Assembly (NCBI GenBank): GCA_045540775.1
Contig: JAZQHU010000052.1
Location: 10,531 to 74,530, forward strand
Direction: 5' to 3'
DNA length: 64,000 nucleotides
Source: Anaerovoracaceae bacterium
GTDB lineage: Bacteria; Bacillota; Clostridia; Peptostreptococcales; Anaerovoracaceae
Shown: positions 2,837-42,027 of the stretch, piece after piece
Layout: each line of letters starts with the position of its first letter
How positions within the stretch are numbered: the first letter of the stretch is position 1
Made by a program: the position numbers and the translations under genes
The notes under the pieces: model-generated
What the model saw: only the letters and a program-made list of their open reading frames with translations
Database searches by the model: none
Told to the model about the DNA's origin: nothing

Positions 2837-2911
2837 TAAGTAATATCCTTAGTGTTAGTTATCGGCAGCTGATGCCAGACGATCTGTGTTTCTGCCCTCA
2901 GATGATTTTTC

Positions 2912-4591
2912 CTAATTGGCGCCATTCTGGGCATTCTGCTGCAGCTGCTCCTGTGAGTGGTCAACAGAAAGCTTCTCCTTGATGTACGGGATCAGCATGG
3001 TTATAGGCGCCTTCTCCTCAGTGACTATATCCGCATTGATAACTGTACCTTCTTCAAGAGTAACATCTGCGCCCTTCTTGCTCGACCACTTGTATCCGCT
3101 GGCCGTGCTGCTGTCCTCTGTAAGTCTGCAGTTGACTCTTACTACCGGTCCGCTCTGCTGGAATACCTGAACGAGAGTCGGGTCTCCCAGCTGGTTCTGC
3201 ATGTCTTCAGCCGAGACTACAGTGCTTGATACCTTTACGACCTCACCTTCCATGTGGCCGTATTCCTGCTTGTTGACCGTCGACGGATATACGACGATCT
3301 TCATGCCGGCCTTGATCTTCTTGCCATCGGATACAGGTACATAGCATGTGACACCGGTATCGTCAGCTCCTGTCGAAGTGATCTTGCAGATCGTTGTGCC
3401 CTGACCGACAGCGTTGCCTTCGACAATGTTGAGTCCGCTGACCTTTCCGTTGACTCTTGATGTAAGAGTCATTGCATCTACTGCGCGGCTCTGCTTGTCT
3501 ATCTCCTGATTGAGCTGATCGAGAATGCTGCCCTTGGCTGCTACGAACTGCTCTTCGAGAGCGGACATCTGATCATTTTTGCCAGCCCTGTCTCCGGTCA
3601 CCTTCGCCTCCATCTGCGAAACGGTATCCTGAAGCTGCTTCTGAGCAGCTTTCTCATTGTTATAGACTGACAGAGCTGTGTTGTATTTCGTCTGGGCATT
3701 GCCTACTTCAAGCTCTTTCTTCTTGGCAGCCGCCTCTTTATCATCCATATTCTTCAGAGCAGAATCATATTTCTTCTTATAGCTCCGGAATCCTTCAAGG
3801 ATCTTTTCGAGTTTTTCTTTCTCTGCCTTCTGCTCCGGCACAGTTTCGTCCTGCATATTGATAAGTGTCTGCAGATTAAACTCTATCTTGTCCACATCGG
3901 TGAGATCTATCCCCGTAGGAGCGACATGATTCTGAATATAGTTGGTCAATGTCGTTTCTTCCTTGGCGAATTCTTCCTGTGCCTTCTTAAAACTCTTGCT
4001 CAGTGAAACCAGCTCGTTCTGTCTCTTCTTCATTGTACTCTCGGCAGAGTTCATGGTGCTCTTAGCGGAGCTTGTCGTCCCTCTCTGCCTGGACAGCGCC
4101 CGGTACCTTTCCCTCAGTGCTGCCTGGTCTGCCGAAAGTGCGCTTCCGGACAGCTCAGACTGCGCCTTGATGTCCAGAAGCGGCTTGGTATCTGCAGTAG
4201 CAGGATCCCCATACGAGTAGAATGTGACCACTTCCACGTCATCCCTTCGCGCGATCAGCCTGTCGAGTTCAGTCTGATACATTTCATCATCCAGCTTTGC
4301 TATCTTCTCGCCGGCAGTGACCGTGTCTCCTTCCGCAACGAATACTTCCTGAACTATTCCGTCAGCCTCAGCAACTACGGTGTGCATGCCGTCTTTTCCC
4401 ATGTAAATACCGTTCGCGTTTACATTTACCGGAAGCCTTCCGAATATAGACCATATAAGCGCAACTGCTATGATAAGTCCCCCGCCTATCGCAGCTATCC
4501 AGAATGAAGGCGAAATAATGGTTATCGCCTTATCCAGCTGCTCAGGAGATGATAATTTATCTAATGACGATTTTCTGAAAATATCCGCCAT
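2912..4591 (-). CDS. HlyD-family membrane fusion / secretion protein
   Basis: 559 aa. N-terminal TM anchor (FWIAAIGGGLIIAVALIWSIF), long coiled-coil middle, beta-rich C-terminus. First gene of the operon with the two ABC genes. Confidence 0.85.
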   Translation of the reverse strand: MADIFRKSSLDKLSSPEQLDKAITIISPSFWIAAIGGGLIIAVALIWSIFGRLPVNVNANGIYMGKDGMHTVVAEADGIVQEVFVAEGDTVTAGEKIAKLDDEMYQTELDRLIARRDDVEVVTFYSYGDPATADTKPLLDIKAQSELSGSALSADQAALRERYRALSRQRGTTSSAKSTMNSAESTMKKRQNELVSLSKSFKKAQEEFAKEETTLTNYIQNHVAPTGIDLTDVDKIEFNLQTLINMQDETVPEQKAEKEKLEKILEGFRSYKKKYDSALKNMDDKEAAAKKKELEVGNAQTKYNTALSVYNNEKAAQKQLQDTVSQMEAKVTGDRAGKNDQMSALEEQFVAAKGSILDQLNQEIDKQSRAVDAMTLTSRVNGKVSGLNIVEGNAVGQGTTICKITSTGADDTGVTCYVPVSDGKKIKAGMKIVVYPSTVNKQEYGHMEGEVVKVSSTVVSAEDMQNQLGDPTLVQVFQQSGPVVRVNCRLTEDSSTASGYKWSSKKGADVTLEEGTVINADIVTEEKAPITMLIPYIKEKLSVDHSQEQLQQNAQNGAN

Positions 4592-5074
4592 GGTTCCTCC
4601 GTGGTCCCTGTAATAATTACATACCTATACATAGTTGATTTTAACTCACACCTGCCCTTCTTTCAATCCCTGAAGGGCCTGACTGCAGGCCTTTGCAGAA
4701 TCCGGAAACAGGACACACGCTTATCCTGCAATGACCATGCGGTCATTGTTGCCGGGGAAAGCCTGTCGAGTACCAGGCGGCAGAGCATCCGGTACACAGT
4801 ATAAGATTCCGAACATATCGAGTTTCATTCTTTGCCAACGTTCGGCTTTGAGTTGCACCTTCGCCCTAATGGTCTCATTTTGCCCCGAATACTTTTCATG
4901 TTTTTATTTTTGCAATTGAGGACCTCTTACAGCCGTACTAAAATTGACATGTAAATTAAAGGAGAAGGTGTTTTTGTTAATACCTTCTCTGCTTTATTTC
5001 CCGGAGAGACTGTTGGCCCTCCGGCAGTAAAAAAAACTCAGAACTGAGCGTATTATATGGAAAGAAGGTATTTT

Positions 5075-6415
5075 ATGGAAAAGTTCTTCAAACTTCAGGA
5101 GCACGGAACTGATGTAAGGACTGAGATGATCGCAGGTGCTACCACGTTCCTGTCGATGGTCTACATCCTCGCAGTCAACCCGAGCATCCTCTCCGCATGC
5201 GGCATGGACAGCGCGTCCGTCTTCACTGCAACAGCAGTATCCGCAGCATTCGCTACACTCTGCATGGCATTCCTTGCCAATTACCCTGTAGCACTCGCAT
5301 CCGGCATGGGCCTCAATGCTTATTTTGCATTCACCGTATGCCCTATGGTAGGTACTGACAAGCCTTGGGAAGTTGCACTTGCTGCAGTACTCTGCGAAGG
5401 TATCGTTTTCATCCTGCTCTCGTTCACTAACTTCAGAGAGTCGCTCGTCAACGACATCCCGCAGAACCTCAAGTCCTCGATCTCCGTTGGTATCGGTCTC
5501 TTCATCGCTATCATCGGACTCAAGAACTCCGGCGCTGTAAGCGTTACAACTGAGAACGGCATTGCACTCGGAAACCTCGCTGACGCAGGAATCTGCCTCT
5601 CACTCGTAGGTATCCTGGTCATCGCTTTCCTTGCACACAAGGGAGCCAAGGGCGCTATCTTCTACGGCATCCTGATTACATGGGTACTCGGAATGATCGC
5701 TCAGGCTATCGGCTGGTATGTACCGGATCCTGAAGCAGGCGTATACAGCGTATATCCTAACTTTGCTATCAGCGGCGTCAAGATGGACTACTTCTTCTCA
5801 TTCGACTTTGAGTGGATCGGAGCTCACATCCTTGACTTCGTAGTAATCGTATTCTCCTTCCTGTATGTAGACATCTTCGATACAGTCGGAACGCTCATCG
5901 GAGTAGCTGCCAAGGCTGACCTCCTCGACGAGGACGGCAAGCTGCCTAACGCTAAGCAGGCTCTCCTCTCCGACGCTATCGGAACATGCGTTGGTGCTAT
6001 CTGCGGAACATCCACAGTAACATCCTTCGTTGAGTCTTCAGCAGGCGCTGCAGCAGGCGGCAAGACAGGACTGACTTCCGTAACAACAGGAATCCTCTTC
6101 CTCGTCTCCCTGATCCTGTCACCACTCTTCCTCTCCGTACCGGGCTTCGCAACAACACCTGCCCTGGTATACGTAGGATACCTGATGATGACACAGATCA
6201 AGAACGTACAGTTCGAAGGCGTACCGATGTCCGACGTCATTTCCGCATTCCTCGCGATCATCATGATGCCATTCACATCATCCATCGCAAACGGAATCAT
6301 GTTCGGAATCATCTCCTACCTCGTACTCAGAACACTCGAGGGTAAGGCTAAGGACGTTAAGCCTGTAATGTGGATCTCCGGAGTCCTCTTCGTACTCTAC
6401 ATGATCGTAGGCTAA
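5075..6415 (+). CDS. NCS2/AzgA-family purine (adenine/guanine/hypoxanthine) permease
   Basis: N-terminus MEKFFKLQEHGTDVRTEMIAGATTFLSMVYILAVNP is typical of PbuG/AzgA permeases, and the protein is polytopic. The start was moved to the ATG at 5075, which follows GGAAAGAAGG. Confidence 0.85.
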   Translation: MEKFFKLQEHGTDVRTEMIAGATTFLSMVYILAVNPSILSACGMDSASVFTATAVSAAFATLCMAFLANYPVALASGMGLNAYFAFTVCPMVGTDKPWEVALAAVLCEGIVFILLSFTNFRESLVNDIPQNLKSSISVGIGLFIAIIGLKNSGAVSVTTENGIALGNLADAGICLSLVGILVIAFLAHKGAKGAIFYGILITWVLGMIAQAIGWYVPDPEAGVYSVYPNFAISGVKMDYFFSFDFEWIGAHILDFVVIVFSFLYVDIFDTVGTLIGVAAKADLLDEDGKLPNAKQALLSDAIGTCVGAICGTSTVTSFVESSAGAAAGGKTGLTSVTTGILFLVSLILSPLFLSVPGFATTPALVYVGYLMMTQIKNVQFEGVPMSDVISAFLAIIMMPFTSSIANGIMFGIISYLVLRTLEGKAKDVKPVMWISGVLFVLYMIVG

Positions 6416-29930: not shown

Positions 29931-30175
29931 AGAGAAGCTCCCCATCGATTGCCGAGCATATGCGAAGGCAGAGATGCTGGGAGCTTCTTTACGCAGTACG
30001 CCTGCGACTGGCAAGTACGAAGTACGCAGACAGAGCAGCTGCGTCTGGCGGCCTCGGATATATCAGCACGGCACGTATCAAAAAAAAGCAAGAGGGTGAT
30101 CACCTGAGTGGTCACCCTCTTTTCGTGCTTCATATTGCACCTGACTGCCCGCCGCTGATCGTCTTCGGGGCCCTG

Positions 30176-30511
30176 TCACCTTTCAACAGGTCCTTCGTAC
30201 CCTTCGTATCCGCCGATGTTCTCGGCGCGGTCGTAGCCCATCTGTCTCAGGAAGGCTGCAGCCATCCCGCTTCTCGCTCCGCTGTAGCAGTACATGCATA
30301 TATGCGCGGTCTTATCAGGCAAAACGCTTTCCACGTATGCCCGGTTCTTCCTTCCGCACAGTCCGGCCTCAAGATTGATCGCGCCCGGAACGTGCCCTTC
30401 TGCGTATTCTTCCGGTGTCCTGACATCCACGAGCACCGCATTCTTATATATCTTCATGTCCTCGAGCCCTTCGTTTATATCGAGCTCAGGGAGTTCCTCA
30501 TAATAACCCAA
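30176..30511 (-). CDS. Rhodanese-domain sulfurtransferase
   Basis: 111 aa. VLVDVRTPEEYAEGHVPGAINL and active-site loop CYSGARS. Confidence 0.8.
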   Translation of the reverse strand: MGYYEELPELDINEGLEDMKIYKNAVLVDVRTPEEYAEGHVPGAINLEAGLCGRKNRAYVESVLPDKTAHICMYCYSGARSGMAAAFLRQMGYDRAENIGGYEGYEGPVER

Positions 30512-30538
30512 TTCTTATATTCTCCGATTTCTATTATA

Positions 30539-32698
30539 TTACGCTGACTGCCTCTTCATCAGCTCATGGAAGTATCCCTTCAGCTCCATGAGTTCGTCGA
30601 ACGTGCCCTCTTCGGCTATCCCGCCGTCCTTCAGCACGATGATCCTGTCGCACTCCTTCACCGTCGACAGTCTGTGCGCGACCATGATGACCGTGCACTT
30701 TTCCTGATAAACAGCATCCAGCACCTTCTTCTGCGAGATGTTGTCGAGCGCCGAAGTCGCCTCGTCAAGGATCAGGAGCCCCGGCTTTGATGCGAAGGCC
30801 CTCGCCAGGAGCAGCCTCTGCCTCTGACCGCCCGAGAACCCGCCCGTGTTCGAGTCAGAGATCTCGGTATCGTATCCGAGCGGCAGCTTCATTATCGTAT
30901 CGTCAATGTCGGCTTTGACCGCCGCTTCCTTAGCCTCTTCCCTGCTCACAGGATGCGGGCAGAAAGCAATGTTGGAATACACCGTTCCCGGCATCACGCG
31001 GCTGAACTGGAACACGGATCCGATGTGCCGTCTGAACGACCTCAGATTGATCGTCTCAAGAGGCCTGTTGTCGATGAACACGCCGCCAGTTACAGGTCTG
31101 AGCACGCCGAGGATGATCTTGAGAAGAGTGCTCTTGCCGCACCCGCTTTCGCCGACTATCGCCACCTTCTCACCGGCAGCAATGTGCAGCGAGATATCAT
31201 TGAGGCAGCCGAAGCTGCTGTTTTCATATGCAAAATTCACGTTCTCTATGCGGATGTCTCCGCGGAATTCTCTGAGAACAGTCTGCTCGCGTCCGTTTTC
31301 CGAAGGTGCCTCGAAAATGTATCTGAGCTGCGCCATCATCGGTCTCATCAGGAAGACTTTGCGCTGAGCATCCATGAGGTCCTCCACCGCCGCGGCAATG
31401 ATCGCAAAAGCCGCGTTGAACGCGATGTAGTCTGCTTTGGTTATACCGCTTGGAACGACGAGCGCCAGCAGAATCACCGTCGTGAGCGAACTCAGGAAGC
31501 CCATTATGACAGACTCAAGCTTGAGTATCGCCGGCTGGTTCATGTCACAGGCCAGGACCGACTGGTATCTGGCCGCCCATTTTGCATACACCCTCCTGGT
31601 GGATCCGCTCTCCTTGATCCGCTGGATGCCCTTGAGAGCGCTGTACAGGAAAGACCTGTTGTCGAGCTCAGCTTCCTGGCGGCTGCGCTCGTTTTCAGCG
31701 AAGAATCCGCTCGCAATGTAGATGTATATGCACCTTACAAGGAGCACAGCGAGTGCCGGTATGAGAAGCGTCATCGAGAAGCCCGCCATCTGAGGTATGT
31801 AGACCACTGAGAACAGCGCCGTAAGCGATGCTCCCATGACAAAGCTTATGATCTGATCTGCGAGGAGCCTCGAATTGGTGATCTGCTTTGAGAGCTTGCC
31901 GGTCGAGGTCCGCAGGAAAAACGTCTGCGGCAGAGTCAGTACTTTGCTCATCACTGCAGACTGCATCTCTGAAGCCACCCTCACGCTCATCCGCGAGAGG
32001 AACAGTGACCTGACCGCTGTGATGCCGCTTCGTATAATTCCCGTCAGGAGGAAGAGGAAAAGTCCTCTTGTCAGCAGGCTGAATCCGTCATTGCCCATCG
32101 GGACTATGTCCTGCAGGATATACTTGTTCATCTTAGGTGTGACCAGCCCGAGTGCCGAGATCATGAGTGCTGCAAGTCCTATTGCCACGACGTCCCTCGG
32201 CGAGATGAGCCTCAGAACATATATCGCATAGTTAAGCAGCGTCGGCTGATCCAGCGCTATCGGCCGCTGTATCACGTATGCCCTCTCCTGCAGCCTGACC
32301 TTGTCAGTCACATGGCCCTTGGCACCGGTCGACGGGCACATGTACCTGTAGCCTACCATCGCAGGTGTCAGGACAGCGGCCGTTCCGTCCTCAAGGAACC
32401 CGAGGATGCTGCCGTTACCCCTCTTCCACGAACCGTCTGTTGTGTCAATGGCATCATATATGATCCCAAGCGGGTCAAGAACGAGATCGAGCATCTCTTC
32501 AGTGCTCTCATAGCCGTAGACCTCATCAGCATTCAGACCGAACGATTCCAGAATATGATCCAATGCCAAAAATGCGCCGTTGTCATCTCCGGCGCTTCCC
32601 GGATTGCTCTGGCGGTTCATCATCCGGTAATCGGCGTTTTTCACCATTTCCCGGTCGATCCTATCCCGTTCTCTGATTACTTCTGTGTACAGGCCCAT
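30539..32698 (-). CDS. ABC exporter (TMD-NBD) with non-catalytic N-terminal domain
   Basis: 719 aa. Walker A GESGCGKST, signature FSGGQRQR, Walker B LLILDEATSALD. Its start directly abuts the stop of the upstream ABC gene. Confidence 0.85.
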   Translation of the reverse strand: MGLYTEVIRERDRIDREMVKNADYRMMNRQSNPGSAGDDNGAFLALDHILESFGLNADEVYGYESTEEMLDLVLDPLGIIYDAIDTTDGSWKRGNGSILGFLEDGTAAVLTPAMVGYRYMCPSTGAKGHVTDKVRLQERAYVIQRPIALDQPTLLNYAIYVLRLISPRDVVAIGLAALMISALGLVTPKMNKYILQDIVPMGNDGFSLLTRGLFLFLLTGIIRSGITAVRSLFLSRMSVRVASEMQSAVMSKVLTLPQTFFLRTSTGKLSKQITNSRLLADQIISFVMGASLTALFSVVYIPQMAGFSMTLLIPALAVLLVRCIYIYIASGFFAENERSRQEAELDNRSFLYSALKGIQRIKESGSTRRVYAKWAARYQSVLACDMNQPAILKLESVIMGFLSSLTTVILLALVVPSGITKADYIAFNAAFAIIAAAVEDLMDAQRKVFLMRPMMAQLRYIFEAPSENGREQTVLREFRGDIRIENVNFAYENSSFGCLNDISLHIAAGEKVAIVGESGCGKSTLLKIILGVLRPVTGGVFIDNRPLETINLRSFRRHIGSVFQFSRVMPGTVYSNIAFCPHPVSREEAKEAAVKADIDDTIMKLPLGYDTEISDSNTGGFSGGQRQRLLLARAFASKPGLLILDEATSALDNISQKKVLDAVYQEKCTVIMVAHRLSTVKECDRIIVLKDGGIAEEGTFDELMELKGYFHELMKRQSA

Positions 32699-34882
32699 TT
32701 ATTTCTCCTCAGGCACCTGCAGCAGTTTTCTGTACAGGCCCTCGGTATTGAACAGCTCTTCGTGCGTGCCTCTCTGGACTATCTTTCCTCCGTCCATGAC
32801 GAGGATGCTGTCGCAGGAGGCGACGGTCGACAGTCTGTGGGCAACTATGATGCATGTCGTCCCCTTCTGTCTTATGGATTCAAACACCTCAGCCTCCGTG
32901 ACTGCATCAAGAGCCGAAGTGAATTCGTCCAGAAGCAGGATGGTAGGCTCGGCGGACAGCGCTCTGGCAAGTTCGATCCTCTGGAGCTCGCCGCCCGAGA
33001 AGTTCCGTCCGTTTTCAACCATCGGCGAGTAGTAGCCCTCGCTTTCCTGCATTATCCTGTCGTGTATATGTGCATCGCGGGCAGCCAGGATCATCTCGTA
33101 GTCCTCGACCGTGGAGTCCCACATGGTGAGGTTGTTCCTGATGCTGTCCTCGAATATTACGCATTCCTGATCCACCGCCGTCACAGACGAGTGGAAAACG
33201 ACGTCAGGTATCTCTTCGCGCCTGTATCCGCCGTACAGTATCTCCCCGCTTTCAGGCTGATAAAGCGACAGCAGGCACTTAAGGAGCGTACTTTTGCCGC
33301 ACCCCGAAGATCCGACGACCGCTATAAGCTGCCCCGGCTCTGCTGAGAACGAGACGTCAGTGAGAGCAAGAGGCTCACCTTCCTGATACCTGTAGCAGAG
33401 ATCCTTGACTTCAAGGCTTCCCTTCAGCTTGTCCGGCTCGTAGTCATCAGTCAGCGGGTACTCGGTGATGCTGTCCCTTTCAAGGATGTCCTCGATGCGC
33501 TCTATGTCCGTGCGCGTTCCCTGCAGCGTGTTGGTCATGTTGACACAGTTGGAGAACGCAGAGCGGAAGCTCGAAAGCACCGCCTGCAGCGCCGCCATTA
33601 TACCGAACGTGAACTGGCCGGCTATCATGAAATATGCTCCGGCAAAGAGCAGCACAGCCTGGGATATGAGTATGTGCACGCTGTCGATGGCACTTGCAAG
33701 CGCACTGGTGCCCGCGGTCTTCAGGTGGTTGTCATCATATTCCGCCTGGGTCCTCCTCCATCCGGAAAAGAACATCCTCTCCTGTCCGCCGGTCTTGATC
33801 GTCTCGATCGTGTTGATACCGTTCAGCAGGGCCGTGTTCATGTTGCCCGTGCTGACAGCTCTTCCGAGCGCCTGAAGTCTGATCCTGTCTCTCAGCATCA
33901 TGGAAACTGCCATGTATACGACCTCGACAGCAACGCACAGAAGCGCCACTTTCACGTTGTATGTGAGCATCAGCACAAAATATATGACAGTCATAACGAC
34001 GTCTATCATTCTCGGGACTATCGTCCTGACAAGCGACAGGTCGAGTTTGGAGTTATCCTCCATCCGCTGTATGATCTCGCCCGACCGGTACTGTTCGAAG
34101 AAGCTCATCGGCTGGGTCATTATCTTGCGGAAAATGCCCGAGCCCGACCCGGCAGCTACCGAATACGCAGTGCGGTATATAAGAAGAGTTCTCAGTATGT
34201 TAACGGTGACACTCAGCACCAGTATCACGCACATGGTGATCACGAGGAATCTGTACAGGGACATGCCTGAACCCGCCTTATGCATGATGATGCCCGACAG
34301 CCAGTCTGTTCCCGGCGTCCTTTCGTCAGCCACATCGAGCATGACCCTTGTCGCCCTTACCATAAGAAGGCTCAGCCCCACTCCAAGCATGTTCAGGATG
34401 CCGAGCCACAGAAGCACCCTGCCGTGTCCGTCCATGCGCCTTTTGATGAGGCTGTAAAGTGACGGCCTTTTGCCGCCCTTCGTGAATCCCGCGCCCGGCT
34501 TCATCACGAGCACGGTCCCGGTGAACATTTCAGCAAAATCCTCTTCATTCATCGTATACTCGCCCTTGGCCGGATCAGCGATATACACTTTGCCGCCCCT
34601 GACGTCCTTGACGATGCAGTAAAGAAACTTCTTCCACTTGGCAACGACCGGGAACTTCATCCCGTCGAGGCCTTTCATGTCCGTCTCTACAGTCTCGGTC
34701 TCAAGGCCGTAGCGGGCAGCCATGTCCTTCATCTGCTCAGGTGACGAGCCGCCTCTTGAGGTTATGTTGTGTGCACGCATCTCGGACAGAGGGATATACC
34801 GCCCATAGTAAGAGAGCATTGTGGCTATCGCCGCAATGGAATTCTCGCCCGTATGAGGTTGTATCACTACGGATATCTTCAC
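32699..34882 (-). CDS. ABC exporter with degenerate C39-like domain (catalytic Cys and His lost)
   Basis: The N-terminus aligns to the C39 domain, but TECG is replaced by GENS and HW..NHFVV by KWKKFLYCIV. Walker A GSSGCGKST, FSGGELQR, LLLDEFTSALD. The probable start is GTG 34882 (GGAGGAAAAGGGAAC upstream) rather than ATG 34927. Confidence 0.8.
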   Translation of the reverse strand: MKISVVIQPHTGENSIAAIATMLSYYGRYIPLSEMRAHNITSRGGSSPEQMKDMAARYGLETETVETDMKGLDGMKFPVVAKWKKFLYCIVKDVRGGKVYIADPAKGEYTMNEEDFAEMFTGTVLVMKPGAGFTKGGKRPSLYSLIKRRMDGHGRVLLWLGILNMLGVGLSLLMVRATRVMLDVADERTPGTDWLSGIIMHKAGSGMSLYRFLVITMCVILVLSVTVNILRTLLIYRTAYSVAAGSGSGIFRKIMTQPMSFFEQYRSGEIIQRMEDNSKLDLSLVRTIVPRMIDVVMTVIYFVLMLTYNVKVALLCVAVEVVYMAVSMMLRDRIRLQALGRAVSTGNMNTALLNGINTIETIKTGGQERMFFSGWRRTQAEYDDNHLKTAGTSALASAIDSVHILISQAVLLFAGAYFMIAGQFTFGIMAALQAVLSSFRSAFSNCVNMTNTLQGTRTDIERIEDILERDSITEYPLTDDYEPDKLKGSLEVKDLCYRYQEGEPLALTDVSFSAEPGQLIAVVGSSGCGKSTLLKCLLSLYQPESGEILYGGYRREEIPDVVFHSSVTAVDQECVIFEDSIRNNLTMWDSTVEDYEMILAARDAHIHDRIMQESEGYYSPMVENGRNFSGGELQRIELARALSAEPTILLLDEFTSALDAVTEAEVFESIRQKGTTCIIVAHRLSTVASCDSILVMDGGKIVQRGTHEELFNTEGLYRKLLQVPEEK

Positions 34883-34991
34883 GTTCCCTTTTCCTCCCTG
34901 CGTCTTCGCGGAATGTGCCGCACACACACCCGCAAAACCGGATTTTGCTCAATCGTAGAAATTATAGCACAGATTCTACGCTCGCGCCCTT

Positions 34992-35068
34992 ACATGATCA
35001 GGCAATTTGCTTCTTTCACATGATCAGGCGATTTGCTTCTTTTACATAATCAGAAAATCTGCCTTTTG
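34992..35068. repeat. Three tandem 25-26 bp repeats
   Basis: ACATGATCAGGCAATTTGCTTCTTTC / ACATGATCAGGCGATTTGCTTCTTTT / ACATAATCAGAAAATCTGCCTTTTG. Confidence 0.85.
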
Positions 35069-35090
35069 AAATAATAAGTTGATTTATCAC

Positions 35091-35118
35091 TTTACATGAC
35101 CGCTCAATATGTTATTAT
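35091..35118 (+). promoter_or_regulatory. SigmaA-type promoter for ncRNA copy 1
   Basis: -35 TTTACA (35091..35096), 16-nt spacer, extended -10 TGtTATTAT (35110..35118). The predicted TSS falls at the AAAGGAAGG that opens the RNA. Copy 2 has the homologous TGtTATCAT at 35314..35322. Confidence 0.55.
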
Positions 35119-35125
35119 CTTGATC

Positions 35126-35247
35126 AAAGGAAGGTGCACGTAAGTGCGTTTCAGGAAGACCGGACAGACTGCCTTTGAAAGAGCATCTGAAACTGCTGCA
35201 GAGTAAGCCGGCCTCGTAAGCAACGCTCAAAATCGCCTTCCTTTTTT
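35126..35247 (+). ncRNA. Candidate structured small RNA, RT-associated, copy 1
   Basis: 5' AAAGGAAGG pairs with 3' CCTTCCTTT and is followed by a T-run. Internal GCAC-GTAA-GTGC tetraloop hairpin, a GTTTCAG...CTGAAAC helix and a CTTT-GAA-AGAG hairpin. No conserved reading frame. Confidence 0.6.
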
Positions 35248-35328
35248 ATTGTTTTTTTGCCTTTTCCTTTTTTCTCATTCGGGTAATTTTTTCTGTTTTA
35301 TGATCGCGCACTGTGTTATCATTCGCTT

Positions 35329-35452
35329 GAGGGGAAGGTGCACGTAAGTGTGTTTCAGGAAGGCCGGACAGACTGCCTTTGATAAAGCATCTGAAACTGC
35401 TGCAGAGTAAGCCGGTCTCGTTGGCAAACCTCAAAAAAACCTCCCCTTTTTT
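35329..35452 (+). ncRNA. Candidate structured small RNA, RT-associated, copy 2
   Basis: Paralog of copy 1. Only about five substitutions over the first ~85 nt, mostly loop or pair-preserving; one gives an A-C mismatch in copy 1. The closing helix covaries (GGGGA(A)GGT / ACCTCCCC), followed by a T-run 35 nt before the RT ATG. Confidence 0.6.
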
Positions 35453-35487
35453 CATTATTAAAATCAGACGATCGCAGAGGACGAGAG

Positions 35488-36747
35488 ATGACTATTTTTG
35501 AAAAGGCGATGCAGCCTGAGACCAGGCAGGCATTTGTAGATTATAAGCTCAGGAAGAGAAGATACAGCAAAGAGGAAAACGAAGCCATGGCACAGTACGT
35601 CCTGAGCGACGACTGCGTCCGGGACATTCAGAGACTCCAGGCGGGTGACTTCTTCCTCGACTACCCGGACTACAGACTGATCCCTAAGAATTTTGACGGC
35701 CGCAAGCGCGCCATTTACCGCTTCCGCGGGACGCAGGGAGCCCTGCTCAAGCTCCTCGTCTTTGCAATGAAGGGTGTTGAGCAGCACTATTCCGACAGGC
35801 TGTTTTCATTCAGATCCGACAGGACTGCGACTGATCTTCTCGAGGACATATGCTCCTGCGAGGGTCTGGAAAACATGTACATATTCAAGACGGACGTCAC
35901 CAACTACGTCGGATCCATCGTTCCTGAGATCATCATTCCGATGCTCGCAGATATATATCTCGAGGACGATCCGGGCTTCTATAATTTCCTTGAATGGCTT
36001 CTCATGAGAAAGAAGGTCATAGACCGCGACGGCAACGTGATCGATCACTGCCCGGGCGGAATGGGCGGCATACCGGTCGCCAACTTCTTCATGAACCTCT
36101 ACCTTCACGAGATGGACGAGTATTTTGCACCGCGCGCAGCGTTCTATTCGAGATACTCCGACGACATCCTCATCTGTGCACACACGTATGAGGAGATCAA
36201 GGAGTTCGAGGCAAAATTCTTTGAGATCCTCGGAAGGCTGCAGCTGAGAGTAAACATGGAAAAGACGGAGATACAGGAGCCGGGAAGCGCTTTCGACATG
36301 CTCGGCATGGAGATCTGCGGCAGCAGCGTAACCATTTCCCGTCACTCCATGAATAAGATAAAGCGCAAGCTGCGCAAGTTCACCGACAGAGCGCTCATAA
36401 GAGCCAACAAAGGCTACGTCAGCCGCGAGCAGGCCGCAAAGGATATCATCAGCAGATTCAACAGGTTCTTCTTCGGCGCGCCTCAGAGCAACAAGCTCCT
36501 CTCGTGGGCAAAATGGGCTTACCCGGTGATCACTGATACGGCCTGTCTCGAGGAGATCGACCACTATTTCCAGAACAGTATCAGATACGTTCTCTACGGC
36601 TCGATGAAACTCAGAAACCGCACCATACCGTACGAAAAGCTCCACGAGCTGGGATACAGGTCTCTGGTGTACTACTATCACCACCAGGACAAGATCTACG
36701 AGCTGCTGGGTATCAAGCCTGATCGCAAACCGGGCAGTGAAGCCTGA
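35488..36747 (+). CDS. Reverse transcriptase, stand-alone (not intron, retron or DGR type by motif inspection)
   Basis: 419 aa. RT motifs: RKRAIYRFRG (1), FSFRSDRTATD (2a), IFKTDVTNYVGSI (3), GGMGGIPVANFFMNLYLHEMD (4), RYSDDILI (5, YxDD), LRVNMEKTEI (6), FDMLGMEI (7), plus a ~120-aa thumb-like C-terminus. Confidence 0.85.
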   Translation: MTIFEKAMQPETRQAFVDYKLRKRRYSKEENEAMAQYVLSDDCVRDIQRLQAGDFFLDYPDYRLIPKNFDGRKRAIYRFRGTQGALLKLLVFAMKGVEQHYSDRLFSFRSDRTATDLLEDICSCEGLENMYIFKTDVTNYVGSIVPEIIIPMLADIYLEDDPGFYNFLEWLLMRKKVIDRDGNVIDHCPGGMGGIPVANFFMNLYLHEMDEYFAPRAAFYSRYSDDILICAHTYEEIKEFEAKFFEILGRLQLRVNMEKTEIQEPGSAFDMLGMEICGSSVTISRHSMNKIKRKLRKFTDRALIRANKGYVSREQAAKDIISRFNRFFFGAPQSNKLLSWAKWAYPVITDTACLEEIDHYFQNSIRYVLYGSMKLRNRTIPYEKLHELGYRSLVYYYHHQDKIYELLGIKPDRKPGSEA

Positions 36748-36783
36748 TCGCAAACCGGACAGTGAAGCCTGATTGCAGGCTTC
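36715..36783. repeat. 2.7 tandem copies of a 25-bp repeat spanning the RT stop codon; the last copy forms a terminator-like hairpin
   Basis: AAGCCTGATCGCAAACCGGGCAGTG / AAGCCTGATCGCAAACCGGACAGTG / AAGCCTGATTGCAGGCTTC. Hairpin GAAGCCTG-ATTG-CAGGCTTC at 36764..36783, then TTT. Confidence 0.85.
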
Positions 36784-36879
36784 TTTGGAGGCACGATCGA
36801 ATCAATTGAACAAAATAAAAGAACCGGCATATCGTCCTTCGCTGAATGAAGGCGTGATGCCGGTTCTTATTATGTCACT

Positions 36880-38676
36880 CTATTCTCCCTCATACCTGTG
36901 ATAGATGAAGTGCGATGTAGTATCCAGATGCAGGAGCCCGTCGTTCTCAGCTGCCTCTGTTTCAAGTGCCTCGAGCACTGCATCTCTCATCACAATGTTG
37001 TTGTACAGAAGCCTGTCTGTTTCGTTGTATGCGATGAGCGGATTGTGCGTGCCGTCATCGTTCGGCCTGTCTGATATAGCAGAGAACTCGCCGACTGATA
37101 TCTTGAGTTTCTTGTCTTTCCAGCCTTCAGTCCACTGTCCGTCCCTGTAGATGACCGTCCCGTCCTTCACAAGGGCATCGACTATGCAATTTTTCCTGCC
37201 CTCTTTATTCACATTGTCCGCCGGGTCATCGTAGAAATAGCAGTCGATGCCGGTCATGCAGGTCAGAAGACTCCTGCCGCTGTGCTGCATGGAATAATGC
37301 ATCAGGTCCATGAACTCTCCGTAAGTGATCTCATAGACATAGATCGTATCGTCAAACGGCAGCATCGAGAAGATGTCGCTGTGTGTGACCACCCTCCTAT
37401 CCTTGCCCTCAGGCACATCAAGATCCGCACGCACTCCTGATGTATTGCATATGGAGACGTCCGCTCCGGTATATTTTCTTACTGCATCATTGATCCAGTT
37501 GTTTGCAATAGTGATCCTCTTCCCGCTGTCATCCAGATAACGTCTGGTGATGGACTGGGTAACATATCCTATCTCATCCTCAAGATATCCGCGGATAAGC
37601 TCCAGATACTCATCACATATCTTTATTACATCAGCGGAAAGCTCCTCTGCGTTGGCCTGAGTATTGAGCAGAATCTTCTCATCATCCAGAGTGTAGATTA
37701 TATCCGCCCTGTCGTCAGCACCGGCTTTTATCTGCGCACCGCCCTTGCCGTCATGCTCAAATACTAGCTCCGAATAAGTGTAAGCGGATGCTTTGCCTGA
37801 AGGAGACAGGTATCTGAGCCCCCAGTCTGTCGTTTCCAGATGCCTCTTGTGGACATGCCCGCCGAGCACAAGGTCGACAGCAGTTCCCTCTCCGAGGCTT
37901 TCGGCTGTATGCCCCGGATCGCCATGCACGAGAAGGATCGTCGCATCGGCCTTGCCGCTTTCTTCGAGATCCGCAGCGAGCTCATTCACTTTGTCCGTAT
38001 CCTCAACGATGCTGTAACCCAGATCGGTGAAAGACGACTGCAGCATGCTTGCCGAAAAGTCCTCATCGTAGCCTATTACGGCCACTCTGGCCTCGAGCAT
38101 TTTGCCGTCCTCTGAATACGCCTTCTTGTTCAGGATGACATAGTCCTGCGTGAACTCTGTCTTCTTGCCGTCGCGAAACAGGTTGGAGCACACGACAGGG
38201 ATCTTGTTCTCATGCTTCTCCCCGCCGAGCACATAGTCGCGCATCGTGGCATCTGAGTTGATAACGGTCTCGAGCCCCCAGTCAAATTCATGATTGCCGA
38301 CTCCGACCGCATCGTACTTCATGCAGTCATAAACAGCAGACAGCGGCTCGCCTTTCTCAAGGAGAGAAACCGTGCTTCCCTGATATATATCGCCCGTGTC
38401 CACGAGGATCGTCCGGTCCGCATCAGAACCTTCCTCAGTCCTGCGCGCGTCTTCGACCTTGTCTGCGATGTAAGCCATTCTGTACTCCGGCGGCTCAGTG
38501 TCTGAAACGATACTGCCGTGAACGTCGGACGTCTCAAAAACTGGCAGCCTGAATTCGCCGGTTCCCGCCTCAGGATATACGATCCCGATGCGCGGCCCGG
38601 TATACAGAAGCACTTCAAGCACGATGAGCGTCGCCAGCATCATTGCTATGAGGTCACGTTTGTCTGCTATTCGCAT
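36880..38676 (-). CDS. Membrane-anchored metallophosphoesterase / 5'-nucleotidase family protein
   Basis: 598 aa. N-terminal TM segment; motifs DTGDIYQG, GNHEFD and GGHVH. Confidence 0.8.
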   Translation of the reverse strand: MRIADKRDLIAMMLATLIVLEVLLYTGPRIGIVYPEAGTGEFRLPVFETSDVHGSIVSDTEPPEYRMAYIADKVEDARRTEEGSDADRTILVDTGDIYQGSTVSLLEKGEPLSAVYDCMKYDAVGVGNHEFDWGLETVINSDATMRDYVLGGEKHENKIPVVCSNLFRDGKKTEFTQDYVILNKKAYSEDGKMLEARVAVIGYDEDFSASMLQSSFTDLGYSIVEDTDKVNELAADLEESGKADATILLVHGDPGHTAESLGEGTAVDLVLGGHVHKRHLETTDWGLRYLSPSGKASAYTYSELVFEHDGKGGAQIKAGADDRADIIYTLDDEKILLNTQANAEELSADVIKICDEYLELIRGYLEDEIGYVTQSITRRYLDDSGKRITIANNWINDAVRKYTGADVSICNTSGVRADLDVPEGKDRRVVTHSDIFSMLPFDDTIYVYEITYGEFMDLMHYSMQHSGRSLLTCMTGIDCYFYDDPADNVNKEGRKNCIVDALVKDGTVIYRDGQWTEGWKDKKLKISVGEFSAISDRPNDDGTHNPLIAYNETDRLLYNNIVMRDAVLEALETEAAENDGLLHLDTTSHFIYHRYEGE

Positions 38677-38809
38677 AGTAGATTTCCTCTCTGCGTCTCT
38701 ATGTCTCTCTATCCCTTTTTATCTGTCCCGCAGTCCGCTGAAACTGTGCGAACCTTCTTCACTATACTGTCGGGTGCTGCGGTTCTCGGCTGCTTTCGCC
38801 AGTTATATG

Positions 38810-39691
38810 CTACTTAGTAGGCGCCACATGCATGGCTCCCGGGCACACGTTGCATGCGACTGCGCAGCCGCCTTTGGCAGTCTCCCTGAGTGACTCAGGC
38901 AGTGACCTGCCTACATCATAAGTTATCCTGATCATCTCATCAAGAGATATATGCACAGTCACGCCCGCCATCGCCAGCTCTGCCGCCGTGAAAGCTCCGG
39001 CTGCGCCGATCGTGTTCCTCGTCTGGCAAGGCACCTCGACCAGCCCTCTCACCGGGTCGCACACGAGTCCGAGCAGGTTGGACAGAGCTATCGCCGCCGC
39101 GTCGCAGCACTGCTGAGGCGTCCCCCCGAGCATCTCGACAAGAGCGCTCGCAGCCATCGCCGAAGCCGACCCGACCTCAGCCTGGCATCCTGCCTCGGCA
39201 CCTGAGACCGACCCGTTTCTCGTCAGCAGGTATCCTATTGCGCTCGCGTTGATGAGCCCCTTTCTCAGAGTGTCCATGCTTATGTCGCAGTTCTGGTACA
39301 CTGACAGGAGTACTGCAGGCAAAACACCTGCTGCTCCGGCCGTAGGTGCCGCAACTATGACGCCCATGCTCGCATTGGTCTCTGCGACCGCGAGCGCGTT
39401 TATAAGAGCGTTGTGCACCACCGTCCCGCAGATCTGCTTGCTGTCTTCAAGCCCGTTCAGCTTCTGCGCCTCTCCGCCGAGGAATCCGCCCATTGAAGGT
39501 GCAGGCTCGGATATCGCTTTGTCGACCGCCACGTTCATGACACGGAGGCACCTGTCGATCTCCTCCATTATCTCTTCTTCCTCCAGCTCACCAAGCTGCA
39601 TCTCTCTTTCAAGCATGATGTCTGAAATATCCATATATTTAAATGCGCAGAGCTTCAGCAGCTCTTCCGCCGTCCTGAAATCCCAGTTCAC
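38810..39691 (-). CDS. sdaAA: L-serine dehydratase, Fe-S dependent, alpha subunit
   Basis: 293 aa. Gly/Ala-rich SdaA core (GGFLGGEAQK, AAPTAGAAGVLPA), paired with the beta subunit. Confidence 0.85.
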   Translation of the reverse strand: MNWDFRTAEELLKLCAFKYMDISDIMLEREMQLGELEEEEIMEEIDRCLRVMNVAVDKAISEPAPSMGGFLGGEAQKLNGLEDSKQICGTVVHNALINALAVAETNASMGVIVAAPTAGAAGVLPAVLLSVYQNCDISMDTLRKGLINASAIGYLLTRNGSVSGAEAGCQAEVGSASAMAASALVEMLGGTPQQCCDAAAIALSNLLGLVCDPVRGLVEVPCQTRNTIGAAGAFTAAELAMAGVTVHISLDEMIRITYDVGRSLPESLRETAKGGCAVACNVCPGAMHVAPTK

Positions 39692-39764
39692 TTTGTCACT
39701 CCTTAGTTAAGATAATAGACTCCACAATTTTGCCCGTGATCTTCCGGGCGCTCATTACAGCCGC

Positions 39765-40439
39765 TTACAGCTGGATAATGTCCACGCTCGTGATGCCCTC
39801 TCTTGCATTCAGCTCATCCTGTATAAGGTCAGGGATGAAGTCATCCGTCTCGATGATGGTGAAGGCCTGTTTACCCTTAGCATTACGGAACATCCTCATG
39901 GAAGCTATGTTGATTTTGCGCTCGGCAAGGCATCCTGTCATGAATGCCGCCATTCCCGGCTCGTCCCTGTGGCCGACGATTATCGTGCTGTAGTCGCCGT
40001 TGAAGTCGACCCGGATATCGTTCATCCTGGTGATGCGGATCCTGCCGCCTCCGATGGACTCGCCGCGGATGTAGAGGGAATGCCCGTCTGCCGCCGTCAT
40101 GTCGATGCCGACCGTGTTAGGATGCGGCATATCCTCTTCCGTATCCACAATGAACTCGACCTCGAGCCCTGCCTCGCGCGCTTCCTCGAACGCCGTCCTG
40201 ATCCGCACGTCGTCAGGCCTGTAGCCGAGCATCCCGCCTATGAGGGCCCGGTCAGTTCCGTGCCCCCGGTATGTATCGGCAAAAGAGCCGTACAGGGTGA
40301 AGGTGACATGGGCCGGAGCTCCTGTGAATATCTGCCTCGCCATCCAGGCGATAGCTGCAGCTCCCGAAGTGTGGGAGCTCGACGGCCCGACCATGACCGG
40401 GCCGATTATGTCAAACATACTTATATAATTATTTCTCAT
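39765..40439 (-). CDS. sdaAB: L-serine dehydratase, beta subunit
   Basis: 224 aa. MFDIIGPVMVGPSSSHTSGA motif with a C-terminal ACT-like domain. Confidence 0.85.
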   Translation of the reverse strand: MRNNYISMFDIIGPVMVGPSSSHTSGAAAIAWMARQIFTGAPAHVTFTLYGSFADTYRGHGTDRALIGGMLGYRPDDVRIRTAFEEAREAGLEVEFIVDTEEDMPHPNTVGIDMTAADGHSLYIRGESIGGGRIRITRMNDIRVDFNGDYSTIIVGHRDEPGMAAFMTGCLAERKINIASMRMFRNAKGKQAFTIIETDDFIPDLIQDELNAREGITSVDIIQL

Positions 40440-40654
40440 TCTTATCTATACTCCTTCAGGGCATCAATGCCGGTCATGAATGCCGGCAATTATCTTAAGG
40501 CACCTGCTGTCTTTGATCGTACTATTGCGCTTCCTGCAGAACAGGCGCCGCTGCCGTCCTCCTCTCACTCTGACTATCATTATAATACAAGAACACCCTA
40601 GCCCGAAATTCACTTCTGCCTGTATGTGACGTAACAATTCAACGTTGCCCGCAT

Positions 40655-40888
40655 TTTACGCCATCAAGCACTCTTGAATTCAATCATTTTTGCCTTCTTG
40701 TTGGCGTAAACATCTTATATTCTCTCTTTTTTACGCCACACCTTCAATCAGTTTACGTCTGATTTGATCGATTACATGGCGTAAAACACATAAAAACGTA
40801 CAGATTTACGCCACCATTCTAAACTATAGCGCCCCATCCTCTCCTTTTTGATGGCGTAAAAATCATAAAAGCCGCTTCAAAAACGCCA
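40655..40888. repeat. Array of TGGCGTAAA / TTTACGCCA inverted-repeat units (three ~75-bp-spaced hairpin units plus extra half-sites)
   Basis: TGGCGTAAA-N19-TTTACGCCA (40702..40738), TGGCGTAAA-N18-TTTACGCCA (40778..40813), TGGCGTAAA-N20-AAACGCCA (40852..40888). Extra half-sites at 40655 and 40752. Confidence 0.8.
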
Positions 40889-40945
40889 CCTAGTAAGCCG
40901 CACTGACATCATCTTCAAAAAAGCCAACCAACAATAAACACATAC

Positions 40946-40975
40946 TGAAAAACGAGGCCAGGATTTCCGGCCCCG
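40946..40975 (-). terminator. Terminator after the bacteriocin precursor pair
   Basis: Minus strand CGGGGCCGG-AAAT-CCTGGCCTCG followed by TTTTTC. Confidence 0.65.
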
Positions 40976-41044
40976 TGTTCAGTCTCTTCTGTATCTGTAT
41001 TCAGATTTTATGATTGGCTTTCAGGCTCTGCAGATCTGCAGTTC

Positions 41045-41482
41045 CTAAACGATGCTTGTTGGGTCGCCCGATCCTGCACAGCTCACTTTATTACCGCCTG
41101 CGCCAATGCCAATGCATATGCCCATACCGGTGTCATAGCCGGTCGAAGTCTTCTCCACGGCTCCCCCTACACCGATTCCGTAACCGAAGAGCACGCACTT
41201 GGTCCATATCAGTCCGCCGCCTTTTCCGCCTGCAACCTGTTCAAGCTCATCTTCAGATAATTCTCCCTGAGCATCAGCGGCAAAAGCGCCTGTAAACTCT
41301 TTGAACTCATCGTATGTCGCGGAGAGTCCGTGCTTTTGCCCGAGAGGCAGCAGAAGGTTTTCAAATACAGACTTTTCGTCCTGCTCTCCTGTATATTTCT
41401 CAGCCGCTTCTCTTAACTCCTCCTGAAAATCGGAATCATTCACCAGAAGATCTCTGAATTTTATAAGATCTGCTTTTACCAT
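41045..41482 (-). CDS. Nif11-like-leader (N11P) ribosomal peptide precursor A
   Basis: 145 aa. 86-aa Nif11-type leader ending ELSEDELEQVAGG, then a 59-aa glycine-rich core KGGGLIWTKCVLFGYGIGVGG...GICIGIGAGG...SCAGSGDPTSIV with Cys at core positions 10, 37 and 49. Confidence 0.85.
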   Translation of the reverse strand: MVKADLIKFRDLLVNDSDFQEELREAAEKYTGEQDEKSVFENLLLPLGQKHGLSATYDEFKEFTGAFAADAQGELSEDELEQVAGGKGGGLIWTKCVLFGYGIGVGGAVEKTSTGYDTGMGICIGIGAGGNKVSCAGSGDPTSIV

Positions 41483-41568
41483 GATGTTAATATATCCCCT
41501 TTCTTTTCATACAAGATAATTGTCTCTGTCCATGATGCAACACAGCATCAGTTTCCCGTGTTCAGACC

Positions 41569-42027
41569 CTATAAGTCCACAAGATCGTCGGCTTCTCCGG
41601 ATCCGAAGCACTTGTAGCTTCCGGCTCCTGCACCGATGCCTATGCATATGCCCACGCCAAAGTGAGAACCGCTGCCATGCGGAGTATCTGCTCCTCCTAC
41701 ACCGATCCCGACACCAAAAATAGCGCATTTGCCAATACCTGCTCCGCCGCCTTTTCCGCCAGCGACCTGTGTCAGCTCGTCCTCTGAAAGCTCTCCGGCG
41801 AGTTCTCCGTTTTCGGCACCGCTTGCAACAGCCTCTATGTAATCTCTGAATTCATCATAGGTTGCCGAGAGCCCATGCTCTTTTCCGAGCGGAAGCACGA
41901 CCTTCTCAAATACAGCCTCCTCATCCGGCTCTCCATCATATTTTTCAGCTGCTGCTTTGAATTTTTCCTGGAATTCAGGGTCAGTGGTTATAAGTTCATG
42001 AAACTTCTTGAGATCTTCCTTAGCCAT
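41569..42027 (-). CDS. Nif11-like-leader (N11P) ribosomal peptide precursor B
   Basis: 152 aa. 91-aa leader ending ELSEDELTQVAGG, then a 61-aa core KGGGAGIGKCAIFGVGIGVGG...GICIGIGAGAGSYKCFGSGEADDLVDL with Cys at the same core positions 10, 37 and 49. Confidence 0.85.
   Translation of the reverse strand: MAKEDLKKFHELITTDPEFQEKFKAAAEKYDGEPDEEAVFEKVVLPLGKEHGLSATYDEFRDYIEAVASGAENGELAGELSEDELTQVAGGKGGGAGIGKCAIFGVGIGVGGADTPHGSGSHFGVGICIGIGAGAGSYKCFGSGEADDLVDL

Follow-up and report, generated by a model that had tools for sequence, protein, structure and literature searches.

A 64,000-nt stretch of DNA from an Anaerovoracaceae bacterium (GenBank assembly GCA_045540775.1, contig JAZQHU010000052.1, positions 10,531 to 74,530 of the forward strand; hereafter, the window) carries a reverse transcriptase (RT) gene of the UG26 group together with two tandem copies of a small RNA gene (Table 1). 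We consider it reasonably probable that this RNA is the cognate partner of the RT and acts as both scaffold and template for repetitive, protein-primed complementary DNA (cDNA), by analogy with the characterised relatives of the enzyme.

The RT was compared with the PADLOC profiles, a classification suggested in a preliminary description of the locus that had been made from its sequence and had treated the enzyme as an orphan. The protein instead matched RT_UG26 over nearly the whole profile (329 bits, E = 6.5e-99, protein residues 1-401 on profile positions 1-396 of 398), followed by UG17/DRT10 (83 bits), UG27 (81 bits), UG4 (75 bits), and Drt9 (67 bits). The models of retron and CRISPR-associated RTs scored lower still. 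RVT_1 was the sole Pfam domain above threshold, and no known domain was fused to it within the 419 aa. Canonical UG26 relatives scored 500-540 bits on the RT_UG26 profile and were approximately 33% identical to the window RT, which places the latter on a divergent branch. Judged by these profiles, the window RT is a full-length UG26 member and belongs to class 2 of the UG/Abi RTs, alongside DRT2, DRT9, and DRT10. UG26 was defined as a class 2 UG/Abi group of 35 members by Mestre et al. 2022, who found its association with defence inconclusive and a COG2852/Vsr-like neighbour in 9 of the 35, and described no noncoding RNA (ncRNA) (PMC9226505). The window RT resembles this group in its length of about 400 aa, the lack of a fused domain, the YxDD motif, and an origin in Clostridia from rumen and gut. 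It differs in lacking the COG2852/Vsr-like partner gene, which is present upstream in 52 canonical loci.

The 419-aa reading frame, the YSDD motif, and the GMGGIPVANFF segment were all present in the sequence as previously noted. The C-terminal motif LGY[RK]SLVxx[YF][YH]H was conserved in UG26 RTs, with a tyrosine at position 390 in 20 of 21 sequences, Y or F at position 397 in all 21, and Y or H at position 398. The predicted structure of the RT (pLDDT 89) was RT-like in secondary structure over its whole length, and the folds that matched it best from end to end were those of stand-alone RTs. In Foldseek and PDB profile searches, group II intron-like RTs matched with a TM-score of 0.70, DRT9 with 0.57-0.64, and DRT2 with 0.57; DRT9 gave the longest profile match among the structure-solved DRT systems (residues 46-358, E = 2e-19). 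The model confirms a compact fingers-palm-thumb RT. Other RT classes were also considered. No group II intron was matched by Rfam in 34000-38000 at E <= 1. A search of 30000-42000 for the template-repeat/variable-repeat pair of a diversity-generating retroelement found beside the RT only the RNA units, a 26-bp array, and a 25-bp array, and the other repeats in this interval, one between two paralogous ABC genes and one formed by a tandem paralogue pair at 41.0-42.0 kb, were not of this type. These searches and the profile scores agree with the earlier view that the RT belongs to neither a group II intron, a retron, nor a diversity-generating retroelement.

The two RNA genes lie in a direct repeat of 152 nt (35096-35247 versus 35300-35451; 82% identical, 204-nt spacing) that includes the promoter region. 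Their RNA bodies of ~122 nt are 86% identical, and an nhmmer search with unit 1 recovered unit 2 with E = 6e-26. Unit 2 lies 36 nt and unit 1 241 nt 5' of the RT start. Each unit has its own extended -10 element and a T-run directly 3' of the 3' strand of its closing stem, confirming what had been reported from the sequence, although promoter 2 was not called by the consensus promoter scan and its -35 is weak. Likewise, five differences were found in the first ~85 nt, copy 1 had an A-C mismatch in GACCGG/CCGGCC, and the closing stem was compensated between the copies (AAAGGAAGG/CCUUCCUUU versus GGGGA(A)GG/CCUCCCC), all as listed before. Rfam scans of 34000-38000 and 35100-35470 returned nothing for the units, a SNORD88 match (16 bits, E = 0.8) being noise. 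The single-sequence folding energies were unremarkable (z = -1.5 and -1.7); the case for structured RNAs therefore rests on comparative evidence.

Related units of ~120-130 nt were first found by nhmmer with unit 1, and a covariance model, R1, was built from 12 window-type units. The structure was tested on an alignment of 20 units from 14 sources. It comprises a closing stem (P1), a hairpin (P2), helix B, hairpin D, and a pseudoknot, helix A, in which the 8-nt loop of D is paired with the strand between P2 and B. In the 20 units, 95.3% of cells were paired, compared with 41-50% in slid controls, and double changes occurred at 24 of the 33 pairs. The covariation of B and D is independent of the fit, because these helices were absent from the model that made the alignment. 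An additional helix between B and D, designated E, was found in every unit with differing sequences (CUGC/GCAG, GGUCUUC/GAAGACU, and GGCAUUC/GAAUGCU). The conserved single-stranded parts were ACAG 3' of B, (U)GAAG 5' of the 3' strand of B, (C/U)GU after that strand, and an A-tract, [C/G]AAAAU, just 5' of the 3' strand of P1. Between (C/U)GU and the A-tract lies P5, a short and poorly conserved segment. RNAalifold alone missed the pseudoknot helix A. This comparative evidence identifies the units as a conserved, pseudoknotted, structured RNA. Genes 1 and 2 differ mainly in P1, where the changes are compensated, in the P5 region, and in the A-tract.

Some structural readings were rejected. The CUUU-GAA-AGAG hairpin of the preliminary description and an initially considered "helix C" were abandoned; neither keeps its register across the units, whereas E and D do. 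The conserved helices in this region are E (CUGC/GCAG) and D (AGCA/UGCU), the loop of D pairing with UUUCAGG. A K-turn reading of the internal loop between B and E (ACAGA/AGUAAG) does not fit the consensus.

The RNA recurs beside homologous RTs. The homologues comprised 70 proteins, one reference-genome locus, and 473 metagenome loci, 80 of which were kept; further loci were added by exact protein look-up (loci are numbered L001 onwards), which returned no record for the window RT itself. Nearly all came from rumen or gut samples. R1 gave 57 matches in 81 loci plus the window. Within the window subclade, defined as RTs 37-66% identical to the window RT, the RNA was present in 17 loci out of about 26; in 14 of these it is antisense to the RT, and in three it lies on the RT strand. 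A position immediately 5' of the RT and on its strand, as first described, is therefore correct for the window but is not the rule. The RNA was found upstream of the RT, downstream, on both sides (L017), or beyond a neighbouring gene at a distance of ~2 kb (L002, L083, and L234). All of the 19 units examined had a -10 element at a fixed distance 5' of the closing stem, most had a recognisable -35, and nearly all had a T-run after the closing stem (L005 lacked a clear run). The presence of a promoter and T-run in each unit and the variable strand and position indicate a separate RNA gene, the product of which must act in trans. As controls, R1 was run on 476 kb around unrelated (non-UG26) viral RTs, with two marginal matches, and on 635 kb of other viral DNA, with none. 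The recurrence beside homologous RTs and the strong covariation of the helices, for which a covariance-model search had been suggested as a check, support the earlier proposal that the RNAs belong functionally with the RT.

Several individual loci deserve mention. The RT of L001, an Anaerovoracaceae rumen metagenome-assembled genome, is the closest to that of the window among reference genomes (64% identical). A ~73-nt remnant (L001 2897-2969) lies 5' of this RT and keeps the promoter, GGAAGG...GUUUCAGGA...CCUUCC, and the T-run. The B-E-D arm is missing, and the remnant represents either a degenerate copy or a pared-down form of the RNA. In L010, a DDE transposase gene (2227-3564) is located 3' of the RT, where the close relative L011 has two RNA genes, and this insertion may have displaced the RNA genes of L010. 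In IMG/VR, no UG26 relative above 30% identity was found; searches there with two RNA core patterns returned 58 and 11 matches, all attributable to chance, and the covariance model found none.

The units do not constitute a new RNA class. Reciprocal covariance-model matches show a divergent homologue of RT-5 (RF03026), one of 19 RT-associated candidate RNAs of unknown function (Weinberg et al. 2017, PMC5737381). RF03026 itself is the RNA found immediately 5' of canonical UG26 RTs (74-92 bits). R1 detected RT-5 sites in 36 loci with E <= 1 (best 2.5e-7). A second model, R2, was built from canonical-clade sequences only. When R2 was run on the 64-kb window, unit 1 (18.3 bits, E = 0.0065) and unit 2 (14.5 bits, E = 0.068) were the top two matches, and both were aligned end to end through P1, P2, B, E, D, CGU, and UCAAAA. 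The units of other window-subclade loci scored higher (L019, 57 bits, E = 2e-12; L013, 36 bits, E = 1e-6; L002, 31 bits, E = 2e-5). Because the order of the elements and the conserved linkers match and R1 and R2 detect each other's targets, we consider homology between the window RNA and RT-5 a sound conclusion from the comparison. Of 62 canonical loci, 58 carried the RNA according to R2; it was invariably on the strand of the RT and ended ~5-130 nt, most often ~5-10 nt, before the start of the annotated RT match. In 25 sequences of the canonical clade, 95.6% of cells were paired and double changes occurred at 22 of 47 pairs, including pairs of P1, P2, and the pseudoknot.

The window-type RNA shares with RT-5 the B-E-D arm, the complementarity between the 8-nt loop of D and the strand 5' of B, the CGU linker, P5, CAAAA, and the association with UG26 RTs. 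The Rfam model consists of B, E, D, and a 6-bp P5 hairpin; it leaves out P1 and P2 and treats the strands of the pseudoknot as unpaired. In the window-type RNA, P5 is a short, variable segment, whereas that of RT-5 is a 6-bp hairpin with an AAUUUU loop. The window-type RNA gene is also free-standing, occurs on either strand, and is often duplicated. The literature searched contained no mention of RT-5, RF03026, or a UG26 ncRNA. True RT-5 sites also received 17-25 bits from R2 on their reverse strand (e.g., L055 2337-2488 and L069 572-720), because the helices are partly symmetric. Low-scoring strand calls for this RNA therefore need to be verified by means of the promoter, T-run, and G-U pairs.

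A conserved protein of ~170 aa is encoded ~150-700 nt 5' of the RT, just 5' of the RT-5 RNA, in 52 of the canonical loci L020-L081 (e.g., L020 1785-2297). It had no Pfam match and matched PADLOC RTasCOG2852 weakly (E = 6e-5), and its C-terminal half looks like a Vsr/DUF559-type nuclease fold. In tblastn searches, this COG2852-like gene was absent from the window and its subclade.

The proposed mechanism is as follows. Each RNA gene would be transcribed from its sigma-70-type promoter and end at the T-run after the closing stem, giving an RNA of ~120 nt. In the predicted fold, P1 closes the ends and is followed by the P2 hairpin, a bent B-E-D arm with an apical loop that pairs back to the strand 3' of P2, P5, and the single-stranded A-tract. 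The mRNA of the RT probably arises by read-through of both RNA terminators. Acting in trans, the RNA would bind the RT as scaffold and template, and the RT would repeatedly copy a short stretch of it into repetitive single-stranded DNA, by analogy with DRT9, DRT10, and DRT2. Priming would probably start from a hydroxyl side chain in the conserved Tyr-rich C-terminal tail of the RT, and the product would be protein-linked DNA made by an RT-RNA particle. The likeliest template is the junction between P5 and the 3' strand of P1 (the variable segment plus CAAAAU), which corresponds in position to the productive template loop of DRT10. On the same analogy, the module may serve in phage defence.

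This proposal draws on the nearest characterised systems. The characterised class 2 UG RTs all copy an ncRNA into repetitive cDNA: DRT2 by rolling-circle copying, DRT9 as poly-dA from a U-tract, and DRT10 as tandem repeats from an A-B-A' loop (PMC12632851). In DRT9 and DRT10, a C-terminal Tyr or Ser is the priming residue (PMC12483538; bioRxiv 10.64898/2026.06.29.735271). The ends of the DRT10 ncRNA pair, and the loop that serves as its productive template is found after the last hairpin, immediately 5' of the second strand of the closing stem (bioRxiv 10.64898/2026.06.29.735271). DRT10, which consists of a UG17 RT, an ncRNA, and a SLATT protein, resembles the window system in that UG17 is the next-best profile, its 137-nt ncRNA is independently expressed and end-paired, and its RT has a conserved C-terminal segment. 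The window system differs in having no SLATT effector and an RNA with a pseudoknotted arm that is unrelated in sequence; in addition, one ncRNA gene is described per DRT10 locus. DRT9 (UG28), like the window system, combines an RT and an ncRNA, encoded upstream in DRT9, without an effector gene and has C-terminal tyrosines and a single-stranded homopolymer tract, of A here and of U in DRT9. Its RT belongs to another group, its RNA is unrelated, and the A-tract is absent from two units of the window type.

Several observations weigh against the proposal. The A-tract is missing in L016 and in the third L082 unit. No RNA was found within 3.5 kb of some homologous RTs (L233 and L238). The window units (35100-35470) did not match RF03026 even at E <= 10 (gathering threshold, 45.7 bits), and the link to RT-5 depends on our own models, of which R2 gave the two window units a modest 18 and 14 bits. 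DRT-like and group II-like RTs are not told apart by the fold search. The locus does not lie in a defence island, its neighbours in the window being transporters and metabolic genes. UG26 systems are known from sequence alone, and the mechanism is modelled on that of other groups. Finally, inspection of the 3' junction by eye revealed no statistically defensible A-B-A' repeat or homopolymer template. The A-B-A' candidates considered and rejected were CGC-UCAAAAU-CGC in unit 1, ACCUC-AAAAAA-ACCUC in unit 2, GUG...GUG in L083, and GUC...GUC in L002. We do not claim an A-B-A' template, because repeats of 2-5 nt are expected by chance in 20-30 nt and their register is not conserved.

The lack of a clear template signature would also fit an RNA that is a scaffold, activator, or regulator and is not itself copied. 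The enzyme would in that case make DNA without a template, or with a protein as template, in the manner of class 1 UG/Abi RTs (AbiK, DRT4, and DRT3b); synthesis of the untemplated, protein-primed kind is firmly documented within the wider UG/Abi family. We regard this explanation as unlikely, however, because the RT groups with class 2 (UG17, UG27, and UG28 are the next models), all characterised members of which copy an ncRNA, and because, at 419 aa, it has no HEAT-like repeat domain of the kind that defines class 1.

A retron-like arrangement, with the closing stem as a1/a2 of an msr/msd, an internal G supplying the 2'-OH primer, and branched multicopy single-stranded DNA as the product, is highly improbable. 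The window locus does resemble a retron in having an RT gene beside a structured RNA with pairing 5' and 3' ends, and many RT-associated motifs were proposed to be retrons by Weinberg et al. (PMC5737381). Nevertheless, the RT lies outside the retron clade and scored 57 bits on the best retron profile, RT_I-B, versus 329 bits on UG26. In most cases the RNA gene is antisense to the RT or as far as 2 kb from it, neither a retron effector gene nor evidence of a branching G was found, and the nearest characterised relatives prime from protein.

Duplication of the RNA is recurrent. Two copies were present in 6 of the 17 subclade loci, adjacent to each other in the window, L011, L013, L082, and L234 and flanking the RT in L017. 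In every pair analysed (the L234 pair was left out), the copies were each other's nearest relatives and were 83-91% identical, implying that the RNA was duplicated repeatedly and independently or that gene conversion has homogenised the products of an old duplication. Substitutions between duplicates affected 6.7% of paired versus 19.6% of unpaired positions. Pairing was kept in both copies at 11 of 20 changed pairs, and the breaks were mostly at helix ends. This substitution pattern indicates that both copies are under structural constraint. The differences are concentrated in P5, the loop of P2, the junction leading into D, and the 3' part of the A-tract. As these are the least conserved parts across all units, specialisation of the copies is not distinguishable from relaxed constraint. 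Consistent with the preliminary description, no system with two separately transcribed paralogous RNAs beside one RT was found in the literature searched.

The chances are about even that the duplication has no mechanistic meaning, the copies being redundant (for dosage, or neutral and subject to gene conversion) and the system consisting of one RNA and one RT. A single copy suffices in 58 canonical loci and in 11 of the 17 subclade loci, the mutual closeness of the paired copies fits recent duplication or gene conversion, and the copies differ in the least conserved parts (P5, P2 loop, and junctions). In contrast, two copies were found in six separate loci with RTs only 40-64% identical, no pair was near-identical, and both copies have kept the promoter, terminator, and base pairing. 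A more elaborate model would have one RT programmed in trans by at least two paralogous RNAs that share an RT-binding core and differ in the 3' junction, yielding two repetitive DNAs or a mixed ribonucleoprotein, possibly coupled to the exporter pair and ecto-5'-nucleotidase described below. We consider this model unlikely; if true, the module would be a multi-template DRT, a kind not described.

An unusual arrangement was seen in L082, which contains tandem UG26-like RT genes (2372-3622 and 4001-5245; 28% and 64% identical to the window RT, respectively). One antisense RNA gene follows the first RT gene and two follow the second; of these, the RNA next to the first RT is far more divergent (R1, 32 bits; R2, 47 bits).

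The window module is situated between an ABC exporter pair (30539-34927), one member of which has a C39 peptidase domain, and a gene for a membrane-anchored Metallophos/5'-nucleotidase (36880-38676) that had no PADLOC match. The exporter and nucleotidase neighbours recur in L083, L234, L235, L236, L002, L001, L011-L019, and L023-L026, and the simplest reading is shared ancestry of the chromosomal region. A cellular rather than antiviral role tied to these neighbours was also considered. Among loci with RTs 34-64% identical, 8 have the nucleotidase gene next to the module and at least 11 have the C39 ABC exporter there. The genes are co-directional in the order nuc-RT-ABC-ABC with gaps of 24-25 nt in L234/L235 and L083, the genes outside this block differ between loci, and both the absence of close IMG/VR relatives noted above and the inconclusive defence enrichment of UG26 would fit such a role. 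However, the orientation of the RT and RNA relative to the neighbours flips between loci, many loci lack both neighbours (L004, L005, L082, and L238), the canonical clade pairs its RT with a COG2852/Vsr-like protein instead, and shared ancestry explains the pattern without a functional link. We view a cellular role as unlikely. L004, L082, and L236 share a large radical SAM gene (Radical_SAM_N2), a possible sign of a cluster for a ribosomally synthesised and post-translationally modified peptide or a bacteriocin.

Two arrays of short repeats flank the module. A 26-bp unit, ACATGATCAGGCAATTTGCTTCTTTC, is present in 2.4-3 tandem copies (34992-35069) between the divergent C39 ABC exporter gene and RNA gene 1. 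Its core, ACATGATC, resembles the -35 regions of both RNA promoters (TTTACATGACC and TTTTATGATCG), and the array may represent remnants of promoter duplication or binding sites of a regulator. The 25-bp repeat at the 3' end of the RT gene encodes the final residues of the non-conserved RT tail. Its final, incomplete unit folds as a hairpin, GAAGCCUG/CAGGCUUC, with UUU 3' of it, and this is probably the terminator of the RT. The sequence CCGGACAG, common to the RNA and this repeat, was judged to be a chance match (~0.1 expected), as was AAGCC, also common to both. Elsewhere in the window, two adjacent paralogous small genes (~145 and ~152 aa) are encoded on the minus strand at 41045-42027. Their repeats D2 and D4-D6 are 71-80% identical with a spacing of 530-545 nt and are unrelated to the RT module.

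Table 1. Positions of the RT gene, the RNA genes, and their elements in the window. R1 is the covariance model of window-type units.
Feature	Position	Strand	Basis or remark
Promoter 1: -35 TTTACA, 16-nt spacer, TG-n-TATTAT	-35, 35091-35096; -10, 35113-35118	+	Promoter scan, 10/12 matches with TG
RNA gene 1	35126-35247 (P1 pairing from 35125)	+	R1, 114.8 bits
Gene 1, P1	35125-35134/35236-35245		
Gene 1, P2	35135-35139/35144-35148		
Gene 1, pseudoknot helix A	35149-35155/35186-35192		
Gene 1, helix B	35157-35163/35208-35214		
Gene 1, helix E	35169-35172/35198-35201		
Gene 1, helix D	35182-35185/35194-35197		
Gene 1, variable P5 region	35218-35227		
Gene 1, A-tract	35229-35232		
Gene 1, T-run	to 35247		
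Promoter 2: extended -10 TG-n-TATCAT	35314-35322 (-10 at 35317-35322)	+	Read from sequence; counterpart of promoter 1 in the duplicated repeat
RNA gene 2, paralogue of gene 1	35329-35452	+	R1, 110.5 bits
Gene 2, P1	35331-35338/35440-35446		
Gene 2, A-tract			7 A
Shine-Dalgarno-like AGAGGA	35476-35481	+	6 nt 5' of the RT ATG; read from sequence
RT gene, 419 aa	35488-36747	+	Open reading frame
YSDD catalytic motif	36154-36165	+	RT residues 223-226
C-terminal motif LGYRSLVYYYHH	RT residues 388-399		Conserved in homologues
25-bp tandem repeat, 2.5 copies	36715-36783	+	Across the RT stop codon; Tandem Repeats Finder

These results tie RT-5, an orphan Rfam motif, to UG26 as its partner RNA and extend the motif by a closing stem, a hairpin, and a pseudoknot. 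Each class 2 UG/Abi RT studied so far makes DNA in an unexpected way: DRT2 produces a de novo gene, DRT9 poly-dA, and DRT10 telomerase-like repeats. Experimental follow-up is worthwhile: UG26 is an uncharacterised group, a candidate template region is suggested by the duplicates, and the RT and both RNA genes together form a compact 1.7-kb cassette suited to such experiments. Since the duplicates differ mainly in one region, the free-standing, duplicated RNA offers a natural experiment on where the template lies, and also on whether one RT uses more than one RNA.

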